Positions 23,546-56,140 of a stretch of 64,000 nt of DNA are shown piece by piece. The translations under genes and the position numbers were made by a program. This stretch comes from Octopus sinensis (Eukaryota). The notes below the pieces were generated by a model, which was not told the DNA's origin, searched no databases, and worked only from the letters and a program-made list of their open reading frames with translations. The DNA is taken from assembly GCF_006345805.1 (NCBI RefSeq), contig NC_043008.1:6572001-6636000 (forward strand), written 5' to 3'. The first letter of the stretch is position 1, and each line of letters begins with the position of its first letter.

Positions 23546-24106
23546 TTCGAGAAGGGGCATGACATTAAATAAACCCTGTTTCCCTCGCTTTTAATATAGC
23601 ATATATCAGTAATTACTCAGGGCAGGCAGTTGGTGACTTCTGTGTAGTAAAACTCACAAAGATGTAAGCGAAACACAGGTGCATGACTGAGTTGAAGGTA
23701 GATTTACTTCTGCCTCTATAGAAAGTAAAGAAAAAGGTGTTGTAGGAATATACACAGCAAATGTACTACAGCAGTTCAATGCATAGCCTAAATATTGAGA
23801 TTGAAAGGCAGGGGGGAATTATGCCTACTTAATCTACAAAAAAATGAAATATTTTGCATTTTACGTATAGTATTCAGAGTAACCTTCATAATTTTATTGA
23901 ATTAGGTGCAAACTTTGCCGCAAAAGTAAAATGTTACTATCGATCTATTTTATTCAGTGTAAGCACTGCCTACCTTGCTTAATGAGGCAGCACTCCCAGG
24001 CACACACACACACACATATTATATATATATATATATATTAATCAATGAAACTAGTCTGGTTTTCATGCTTTATTATTTACCATTGTTACAATGTTAAAAT
24101 ATGGAA

Positions 24107-24148
24107 ATAAACTAGTACTTTCATGCATTACACAATCTTCAGGTTTAT
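24107..24148 (-). ncRNA. Minimal type I hammerhead ribozyme, near-intact
   Basis: Reverse complement: ATAAAC-CTGAAGA-TTGTGTAATGCAT-GAAA-GTAC-TA-GTTTAT; perfect 6-bp helix I, palindromic AGTACT helix III, CUA triplet, downstream AATAAA; the unit 24038-24176 is flanked by (TA)n. Confidence 0.8.
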
Positions 24149-24780
24149 GTAGGGACAGTTGTGCTCCACAACTGAATATATATATGTATATATATATATA
24201 TATATATATGCAGGGGTTGTCAAATATCTAAAATTTTGAATGCATTTGAACCTCTTCCTTTCCGGTTACATTAAATTCTTCAGCCAATCAGTAGATGTAA
24301 CATTTTCACCAGCAAAACAAAGAATGCATAACATACAAACACCATCTTTGATAAAAAAAAAAAAACTCCTTACAAACATCATTGCCATTACCATTCATGA
24401 AGCCCAACATTTCAAAAAGAATGCCATAAAGACCAAAGCAAAGGAGTTAGTCACTCTCCTGACCCAGTAGATTCCCCGCTCCTCATTGTTAAAGCTCTTC
24501 TGCCTGCAGGCTTTAGATTTCATTAAACATCTTTCCTTGATATCAGAAGTATGAACACTAGGAAGTCTTCTATTTCATGATTATTCCTACAGAGTTGGAA
24601 GGAATATGCAAATGATTATTTATTGTATGGTGGTGTTTCTATCTCTGTGTTTATACATTTATGCTCATGTATATATGTATGTATGTACATATATATATGT
24701 ATATGTGTATGTGTGTGCATGTATATGTACATGGAAGGTTGTGGTATGTGTCTATGTGTGAGCTTGATATATATATATAC

Positions 24781-27692: not shown

Positions 27693-27900
27693 TTGAAGTA
27701 AGATGTCATATGCTGAGATAAGAGATGTCACATTAGGAAGTAAGATATGTCAGATGTTGAGGCAAGATATGTCAGATGTTGAGGCAAGATATGTCAGATG
27801 TTGAGATATATCACATCTTGAAGTAAGATATGTCAGATGTCAAGGCAAGATATGTCAGATGCTGAGATAAGATATGACATGTTTAGTAAGATATGTCACA
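27693..27900. repeat. Minisatellite, about 22-bp unit AAGATATGTCAGATGTTGAGGC
   Basis: About 9-10 degenerate tandem copies. Confidence 0.85.
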
Positions 27901-32886: not shown

Positions 32887-33684
32887 AGTTTCCACAAAAA
32901 CTGTTCACTGGGAGCTGCACAAAGCCGGATTTCACATGAGGGCTGCAATCAGAAAACCACTACTTTCAAAAGCAAACGTTGCAAAACATTTAGAGTGGAG
33001 TAAAATCTTACAGAATTAGTCCCTAGAGCAGTAGAAGAATGTTATTTTCTCGAACGCATCATCCTTTTACCCTATTTCCGACCACTCGCTGAGTATACAT
33101 GTAGAGACAGCCAAAAGAAGCATTTGACCCAGACTGCCTTCTTCCAACTGTTAAACATAGAGGAGGATCTGTGATGATCTGGGGCCCTATATTTTGGAAA
33201 TCCACCAGCCCAATGGTTTGCCTTTATGGCAGAATTAGTAGTCAAGACTATTTAAGCATTTTATTTGATCAAATTCATCCTATGGTTGCAGAACTGTTTC
33301 CAGAGGGAAATGCAATCTTTCAGAATGATAATGCACCAATTCACACAGATAAAGTTGTTACTGAATGGCACAAGGATCATTCTAGTGAAGTTGACCATCT
33401 TATCTGGCCACCACAGTCCCCAGATTTCAATATTATTGAACATTTATGGTGCATTTTAGAAAAACAAGTAAGGAGGCGATATTCTCCACCATCATCACTA
33501 CAAGAACTGGAGACTGTTTTAATTGAAGAATGGACAAAAATTCCTTTGGAAACAATTCAAACTTTGTATGAATCCATACTTCATAGAATTCAAGCTGTAT
33601 TTACTGCCAAAGTGAGTCCTACCCCATATCAAAATAAATTTGCTTGAAATTTTTATGTGTTTCCATTATTTTGTCCAACCCCTG
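32887..33684 (+). mobile_element. Tc1-family DNA transposon, 3' two-thirds with decayed DDE transposase and right TIR
   Basis: VKHRGGSVMIWG...FQNDNAPIH...WPPQSPDFNIIEHLW motifs (ORF 33171-33647); TIR GTGTTTCCATTATTTTGTCCAACCCCTG at 33657-33684, then TA. Confidence 0.95.
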
Positions 33685-51680: not shown

Positions 51681-52120
51681 TTAATTGAATGAGTTGCTAA
51701 TTAAATGAACAGCTAATTGAATGAGGTTGCTAACTGAATGAGTTGCTGATTGAATGATCAACTAACTGATTGAGATGCCAATTGAATGAGTCACTAATTG
51801 AATGAGCTAAAGACTGAATGAGCTGCTAATTGAATGAGTTGCTAACTGAATGAGTTGCTAATTGAATGAGTCACTCACTAACAGATTGAGACACTAATTG
51901 AATGAGTAGCTAACTGAATGAGTTGCTAACTGAATGAGTTTCTAATTGAATGAGTCACTCACTAACAGATTGAGACACTAATTGAATGAGTAGCTAACTG
52001 AATGAGTTGCTAACTGAATGAGTTTCTAATTGAATGAGTCACTCACTAACTGAATGAATAGTTAAATGAAAGAGGTTGCTAATTGAATGAGTCACTAATC
52101 GAATGAGCTACTAATTGAAT
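51681..52120. repeat. 16-bp minisatellite (AATTGAATGAGTTGCT) with an 84-bp higher-order repeat
   Basis: About 27 units; an identical 84-mer starts at 51860 and 51944, with a partial third at 52028. Confidence 0.92.
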
Positions 52121-55721: not shown

Positions 55722-56140
55722 TATCATCATCATCATTATCTAACGTCCGTTGTCCATGCTGGTTGGTAAGCTAGAAGGCGTCATGGTTATCTACAGCTGG
55801 ATGACCTTCCCAATGCCAGCCACTCTGAGAGTGTAATGGGTGCTTTTATGTGCTACTAGCACAGGTGCCGTTTGTGTGGCACTGGTATCTACCACAACTG
55901 TGATTTTGCTTGGCTTGATGGGTCTTCTCAAGCAGGACATAATGCCAAAGGGCTTGGTCGTTGCCTCCTTGAGGTCCAACACTCTAAAGAAACTCAGTCA
56001 CTTTGCCTCCAGGAGGTCCAACACTCTAAAGGAACTCAGTCACTTTGCCTCCAGGAGGTCCAACACTCTAAAGGAACTCGGCCACTTTGTCTCAGTGAGG
56101 CCCAATGCTCGAATGGTGCTCTTTATATGCCACCGGCATG
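55512..56140. mobile_element. Family C SINEs tail-to-tail; the second contains a 42-bp x3 tandem repeat (55963-56090)
   Basis: Plus copy at 55512-55680, minus copy from 55724; unit CACTTTGCCTCCAGGAGGTCCAACACTCTAAAGGAACTCAGT. Confidence 0.82.

Follow-up and report, generated by a model that had tools for sequence, protein, structure and literature searches.

The window analyzed in this work, a stretch of DNA of 64,000 nt (64 kb), holds on its minus strand a unit of 139 bases that reads as the solitary 3' end of a Penelope-like element (PLE) and carries a minimal hammerhead ribozyme motif. The unit spans from 5 nt inside a predicted transcript start to the 3' end of the element, and its features are given below in 5' to 3' order along the minus strand.

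24038..24176, minus strand: solo 3' end (distal part of the pLTR) of an old PLE subfamily, A; G000:C12:6596038-6596176 in the genome searched (G000, a 2.7-Gb animal genome)
24177..24209, no strand: (TA)17 run at the 5' junction, occupying the place of the CCAAT/TATA-like promoter of long copies
24156..24174, minus strand: 8-bp hairpin CAGTTGTG/CACAACTG, perfect in the window copy and imperfect in most relatives
24143..24148, minus strand: helix I 5' strand, ATAAAC, with 6 Watson-Crick pairs to GTTTAT
24136..24142, minus strand: core C3-A9, CTGAAGA; N7 is U in most subfamily-A copies
24123..24135, minus strand: helix II, with 2 Watson-Crick and 2 G-U pairs and a U10.1-U11.1 closure found family-wide
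24119..24122, minus strand: core G12-A15.1, GAAA
24114..24119, minus strand: helix III palindrome, AGTACT, in which 6 bp are possible solely between two ribozymes
24112..24113, minus strand: predicted cleavage site, after C-U-A17 (hammerhead numbering)
24107..24112, minus strand: helix I 3' strand, GTTTAT
24069..24074, minus strand: AATAAA, shared by subfamilies A, B and C and placed some 30 nt short of the element end
24050..24055, minus strand: second ACTAGT, product of a 7-nt deletion, with predicted pairing to the helix III / helix I region
24001..24037, no strand: (CA)n(TA)n run at the 3' junction, the target microsatellite; the 30-40-nt tail is absent in the window copy

The pairing of helix III between two ribozymes follows the dimer model of PMC4209133. 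The AATAAA is a likely candidate for a polyadenylation signal, and the 7-nt deletion near the 3' end is private to the window copy among 41 aligned copies. A hairpin is predicted at the equivalent place in the young subfamilies, and it begins at the predicted +1.

Other repeats are found around the unit. A very high-copy element of about 390 bp (23605-23995), with imperfect TIRs (23612-23630 and 23965-23983) and TA-rich flanks, adjoins it and is likely a MITE. The segment directly after the (TA)17 run (24212-24240) resembles the start of a repeat also present at the L005 flank, and it may be a worn DNA transposon end with a possible likeness to those of Tc1. Farther away, a 180-aa open frame on the plus strand (33105-33647) matches Pfam DDE_3 (E 1.7e-12) and is identified by that match as a Tc1/mariner-like transposase remnant. 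Minisatellites lie at 1684-1951, 27703-27898, 51682-52120 and 55961-56105, with units of 66, 22/61, 16/84 and 42 bp, respectively, together with many microsatellites.

A preliminary description of the locus had proposed a hammerhead with all its catalytic residues, and our analysis bears this out for a motif of type I topology: the core positions C3 U4 G5 A6 N7 G8 A9, G12 A13 A14 A15.1 and U16.1 H17 are all in place on the minus strand. The perfect 6-bp helix I, the palindromic helix III, the upstream hairpin and the downstream AATAAA with (TA)n on both sides were recovered as described, and the proposed cleavage coordinate (24113/24112) agrees with the cut predicted from hammerhead numbering. 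Known PLE hammerheads are closed by a helix I of 4-6 bp and possess a palindromic helix III region that allows a dimer, and both traits are seen here (6 Watson-Crick pairs and AGTACT). They also show a G10.1-C11.1 pair and one extra base between positions 9 and 10.1, in place of which the window copy has U-U; the pair is an over-80% consensus rather than a universal trait, and natural hammerheads with U10.1-U11.1 have been reported (PMC3088659). The same closure is found in subfamilies A, B, C and D and must thus be inherited rather than the product of decay, so that it does not represent, as had been assumed, a weakening of helix II to be restored.

A short motif in AT-rich DNA could match by chance, a prospect that has to be considered since none of the Rfam hammerhead models scores at the site (nothing matches at gathering score, and the 27 matches at E<=10 include no hammerhead) and the folding z-score of the window copy is only -0.8. 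A strict descriptor, nevertheless, matches the 64-kb window once, at this very site, and does not match any of 200 order-1 simulated windows. Exact searches with the core patterns of three subfamilies return 70 (A, the subfamily of the window copy), 341 (B) and 334 (C) matches genome-wide, all of them lower bounds, and none for any of the reversed controls. Given only an alignment of 14 family members, RNAalifold finds both helices I and II, each of which shows one compensatory change between subfamilies. The change in helix I (A-U to G-C) is a single evolutionary event, and the covariation of alignment A1 as a whole amounts to two such events, a number of covarying pairs that is also reached in 408 of 500 shuffles; the outcome of this control is mixed. 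On the strength of these family data a chance match can be dismissed as having negligible probability.

The three sets of matches differ markedly in age. Mean pairwise divergence outside the patterns is 13.7% in A, 4.4-4.7% in B and 1.1-1.9% in C, and the sequences thus resolve into three layers: an old (A), a younger (B) and the youngest (C). A tree of 25 endonuclease-region rows sets A apart from B, C and D (100/100) and nests C within B (92/86, the bootstrap itself not having settled). Two small contigs (L016 and L017; G000:C12426 and C9036) share 99% identity throughout the 3.1 kb retrieved and are probably duplicated haplotigs; copy counts in this genome may hence be slightly inflated.

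The nature of the parent element, which the preliminary description had missed, becomes apparent from the longer copies. At least 45 matches to the unit were found (40 scored of 400 candidate regions), with 76-89% identity when the window copy is excluded, and the longer ones extend upstream across a 3' untranslated region and reach the last part of a GIY-YIG endonuclease. A search with the endonuclease peptide returned at least 150 scored matches, out of 5964 candidates, six of them with open frames of 775-777 aa. Units of subfamily A lie downstream of reverse transcriptase/endonuclease (RT/EN) remnants in five loci (L008, L023, L028, L184 and L188), in three of which (L184, L188 and L008) a broken RT/EN is directly upstream of the A-type unit. 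No full-length copy of subfamily A was found, the longest spanning just parts of ORF2, and the full architecture is therefore taken from the sister lineage, where units of 4272 nt (4.27 kb) comprise ORF1 and a 775-aa open frame. This frame matches GIY-YIG above the Pfam cut-off and RVT_1 slightly under it (E 2.4e-6), and it shows a CX4CXXC linker between RT and EN, within the CX2-5CXXC pattern of such proteins, as well as the CCHH residues. The 67-aa endonuclease remnant of L008 by itself matches no Pfam family, whereas the full frame does, and ORF1 does not match any Pfam family either. The endonuclease is C-terminal, which sets the family apart from the Naiad PLEs, with their N-terminal endonuclease and no canonical hammerhead. 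Searching the window with ORF1 and ORF2 (tblastn, E<=0.01) returned nothing, and there is hence no coding remnant beside the unit.

ORF2 has 663 relatives at E<=1e-30, and the named eukaryotic relatives of the family RT are from bivalve molluscs; the host of the present family may be a cephalopod. Several close relatives (P0006, P0009, P0022, P0069 and P0088; 47-54% identity to the PLE protein) are labelled as proteins from bacterial gill symbionts of bivalves, and likely stem from host DNA that entered the symbiont assemblies. Upstream of ORF2 lies ORF1 (about 430 aa), and the two open frames overlap for about 90 nt where the sequence is rich in A (L074:6377-4977 and 5067-2743, minus strand; L079:741-2141), an arrangement that suggests a frameshift at a junction blurred by homopolymer assembly errors.

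The structural habits of the family point in the same direction as its coding capacity. Seamless upstream pLTRs are clear in 5 of 9 long C loci, a head-to-head inverted partner is present in 11 of 28 distinct loci (two duplicates merged), and the 30-40-nt tail is optional. Of 38 scorable B/C copies, 37 have a (TA)5 run no more than 70 nt from the 3' end (the other 3 of the 41 sampled have no recognisable end), against a background of 9%; (TA)n is the target of this family. Partial tandems forming pLTRs, inverted 5' arms, an optional tail and a bias towards insertion in microsatellites are the traits of endonuclease-positive PLEs, and together with the RT/GIY-YIG frame they identify the parent, on sequence grounds, as an endonuclease-positive PLE of the Neptune/Nematis type as described in PMC8557442. 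A MITE was also considered for the unit and rejected, the inverted pairs being head-to-head PLE arms.

Many copies of this family share a common 5' start. When 5' breakpoints are placed on long copies and numbered from the A of a conserved CAGT (position 0), 32 of the 69 A copies begin at -5..+3 and 7 more at +4..+10, the window copy among the latter at +5. In B and C (n=41, the first listed matches on two contigs with most close pairs skipped), 13 breakpoints fall at -4..+2, 5 farther inside and none in the interval from -64 to -5; the remaining copies break in the -373 to -65 interval (8) or run on past the 560 nt examined (15). Binomial tests against a uniform null give p-values of 1e-29 and 1e-14. 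Truncation is not uniform, and for this reason the real evidence is the cliff directly upstream of the site, where four consecutive 9-nt bins hold 1, 0, 0 and 1 breakpoints in A, and 0, 0, 0 and 0 in B/C. Six breakpoints that cluster near -115 are attributed to misalignment at a local duplication and were not considered. In long copies of A, B, C and D alike, a TATA-like box and a reversed CCAAT box are conserved 32 nt and about 84 nt upstream of the start site, and family units carry AATAAA 30-40 nt before the 3' end. Breakpoints and motif spacing together indicate that the common start site is probably the transcript start, and the simplest reading of the unit would be a copy that runs from transcript start to poly(A) end, its reverse transcription continuing until the template ended. 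Transcripts of PLEs are described as starting in the pLTR (PMC2377424), and the pLTRs of Adineta vaga as having a putative TATA box and an initiator (PMC3846280). The promoter of Drosophila virilis Penelope, on the other hand, is internal and TATA-less (PMC2377424), and a unit starting at +1 might accordingly keep some promoter activity.

The same parent could have left such units by other routes, namely random 5' truncation, a stop of the RT at the 5' hairpin or a splice acceptor end. Heavy 5' truncation is known for PLE insertions (PMC8557442), the window copy starts 5 nt inside the breakpoint peak, and the hot spot coincides with the foot of the predicted hairpin and with a pyrimidine-rich CAG resembling a splice acceptor, a coincidence that counts against a transcript start. 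Random truncation, nonetheless, does not anticipate a sharp upstream cliff in two separate subfamily samples; an RT halted by the hairpin should stop at the hairpin's 3' foot (about +20 to +27), a position with only a minor cluster; the AG is kept in most copies and no common upstream exon precedes the site, against what a splice acceptor would entail; and the inverted arms retain the whole hairpin, which is not expected from snap-back priming. We thus regard these routes as unlikely. It is even less probable that the unit represents one monomer in a family of non-LTR retrozymes or SINE-like elements that spreads as its own small (circular) RNA. Short solo units do make up a large share of the family (39 of 69 A copies start at -5..+10), and animal retrozymes have been proposed as PLE pLTR derivatives (bioRxiv 10.64898/2026.07.22.740005). 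Yet neither the window nor any of 30 loci shows units arranged head to tail, adjacent copies being inverted; the units begin at the predicted start instead of at the cleavage site expected for a ribozyme-made monomer; and their sequence runs on into RT/EN in long copies. This origin is largely refuted already.

Within its family, the window copy is not well preserved. Many copies elsewhere in the genome are in better condition, and with 16 of 138 positions (11.6%) departing from the majority of 41 copies, themselves selected for their likeness to it, the window copy ranks 34th of 41. Helix II reads TGCG/CGCA in 17 of 69 A copies (-2.8 kcal/mol) and TGCA/TGCA in 15 (-2.0 kcal/mol), the sample being all but one of the 70 exact pattern matches (one was not fetched); that of the window copy has a predicted energy of +1.3 kcal/mol and ranks 59-62 of 69. 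Its two G-U pairs likely reflect CpG decay of TGCG/CGCA through two C-to-T changes, one of which enables the 5' strand of helix II to pair with the 5' strand of helix I. The second ACTAGT, created by the private deletion, is in turn predicted to pair with the helix III region. The preliminary description held that only helix II was weakened; the weakness itself stands, as seen in its two G-U pairs, but the account was incomplete, since the deletion and the helix II changes create these competing pairings. The predicted probability of helices I and II is about 0 in the window copy, compared to 0.24-0.46 and 0.55-0.74 in one copy each of C and B. Several A copies with a perfect helix II likewise have a helix I probability near 0, and folding scores are consequently weak evidence of inactivity. 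At one position of helix II, G-C and A-U pairs are in excess within subfamily A (Fisher p=0.003), an excess that a single A-U sub-lineage or uneven CpG decay could explain and that we do not count as selection.

These observations bear directly on the earlier view of the locus as a residually active ribozyme, cutting a host or read-through transcript. All the core residues and the six helix I pairs are intact, and hammerheads with the U10.1-U11.1 closure exist in nature (PMC3088659). Against this stand the rank of its helix II and a predicted fold that lacks helices I and II. Neither blastn, nhmmer, two family HMMs nor the descriptor detects a second copy in the window, so that no partner ribozyme for dimerisation exists in the 64 kb, and there is no upstream promoter in this copy. 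The minimal PLE hammerhead of Schistosoma, as reported in PMC4209133, displays no detectable cleavage as a monomer and low activity as a dimer. Contigs from two runs guessed to be RNA, which may be DNA, cover the flanks of the locus, break at (TA)n and include other copies of the family; they are neutral as to transcription. Residual activity at this locus seems to us very unlikely, and the folding and divergence data portray the window copy as a poorly preserved remnant, likely inactive. The claim that it was the best-preserved hammerhead lacked any comparison within the window, of which it is the sole copy, and helix II is more stable in 58 of the 69 copies matched by the pattern across the genome; nor can a copy so divergent, with one of the weakest second helices, no promoter and no partner, be upheld as the best candidate for residual activity.

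A pattern starting just behind the cleavage site has 811 matches and a pattern spanning it 745. Among the first 100 listed B/C matches, compared by eye, four have no spanning match: three are point mutants and the fourth is a B copy (L182, ~1071, minus strand; G000:C2:1352602) that begins at the predicted cleavage site, within a 4-nt microhomology and flanked by (AACT)n. Its origin could lie either in the copying of a cleaved RNA or in truncation at the microhomology. With one copy in 100, the cleavage site is no hot spot, in contrast to the predicted start, and the template RNA would appear to be uncut or re-joined.

Very probably, then, the window unit is a solitary, decayed PLE 3' end inserted in a (TA)n microsatellite, with a minimal hammerhead that is likely inactive. 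In the proposed mechanism, the parent pLTR would hold an RNA polymerase II promoter, formed by the CCAAT box, the TATA-like box and a CAGT initiator 32 nt further on. The RT-endonuclease would nick (TA)n and prime at the pLTR end of an uncut RNA, and copying to the RNA 5' end, or almost so, would yield a unit of 140-190 nt that extends from transcript start to poly(A) end and has no promoter of its own. The parent ribozyme would cut slowly and solely as a dimer formed via the palindromic helix III, while the window copy would have later lost the strength of helix II and gained its two competing pairings. The seamless upstream pLTRs are compatible with a ribozyme-made circle, as PMC4209133 proposes, or with strand transfer through the repeated start-to-end segment, and we lean towards the latter. 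A bolder reading, which we put forward as a tentative and somewhat doubtful possibility, is that the 140-190-nt unit acts as a terminal redundancy akin to the R region of LTRs, with pLTRs arising via strand transfer instead of circles and with cleavage being dispensable or deliberately slow. This status of cleavage is suggested by the pile-up at the start site, the near absence of starts at the cleavage site and the expansion of a core variant alongside seamless tandem pLTRs.

That variant belongs to the youngest lineage. In subfamily C the core reads CCGAAGA, with U4C fixed (e.g. L073, L074, L077, L078 and L079), whereas its parent subfamily B retains the canonical U4, and all six frames of 775-777 aa examined belong to C, as do the seamless tandem pLTRs. 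A U4C variant described for a viroid, although considerably less active in vitro, still permits infectivity (PMC3088659), so U4C ribozymes are not necessarily dead. The literature searched, to which Repbase, Dfam and some supplements that may bear on this point did not belong, contains no description of the family, of a fixed solo-pLTR start or of a U4C PLE subfamily.

The motif is thus real, its parent is a known kind of element and the window copy is an ordinary one, of little weight as one among hundreds of decayed ends of a known retroelement class. The family is more informative, with its fixed start, the lack of a pile-up at the cleavage site and the U4C change in its youngest lineage. 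The role of hammerheads in endonuclease-positive PLEs is called unclear in PMC8557442, and this genome offers a natural series to address it: an old subfamily, a younger one with the canonical U4 and a youngest one combining U4C with open RT-endonuclease frames. The fixed 5' start constitutes a precise prediction of the transcript start, at the CAGT A that lies 44 nt ahead of C3 in B/C and 38 nt ahead of it in A. Should the U4C ribozymes prove dead while theirs is the lineage that continues to spread, the main argument for pLTR formation via circular RNA would fall away in this clade, and, if the terminal-redundancy reading were true, the family would be a fossil record of Penelope copying.

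Comparison with known systems places these elements within an established framework. They resemble the minimal hammerheads of metazoan PLEs (PMC4209133) in their type I topology, CUGANGA/GAAA/UH core, short helix I, palindromic helix III and pLTR location, and in occurring mostly as solo copies with some opposite-strand pairs 100-700 bp apart. They differ from those hammerheads in closing helix II with U-U, without the G10.1-C11.1 pair and the extra base between 9 and 10.1, even if the Hydra Poseidon example (Fig. S3 of that paper, as read from column-scrambled text) appears to have the same U...U layout. With the Neptune and Nematis PLEs (PMC8557442) they share an RT followed by a C-terminal GIY-YIG with CCHH, the CX2-5CXXC linker, an optional ORF1, partial-tandem pLTRs, inverted 5' arms, a 30-40-nt tail and the bias towards microsatellites; what departs from that account is a new host family with four or more subfamilies and a U4C core in the youngest. 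Metazoan non-LTR retrozymes (bioRxiv 10.64898/2026.07.22.740005) are likewise non-coding units with a type I hammerhead and kinship to PLE pLTRs, but they form head-to-tail arrays of ribozyme units, whereas here the window has one unit, the 30 loci show no direct repeats and the sequence extends into an autonomous element. Finally, D. virilis Penelope and A. vaga Pen (PMC2377424 and PMC3846280) share with this family a transcript start within the pLTR, a tail, solo pLTRs and head-to-head arms. The D. virilis promoter is internal, TATA-less and accompanied by an intron, whereas in the present family the predicted start is preceded by CCAAT and TATA-like boxes, and the solo pLTRs of A. vaga are ascribed to recombination or deletion, whereas those analyzed here share one common 5' start.
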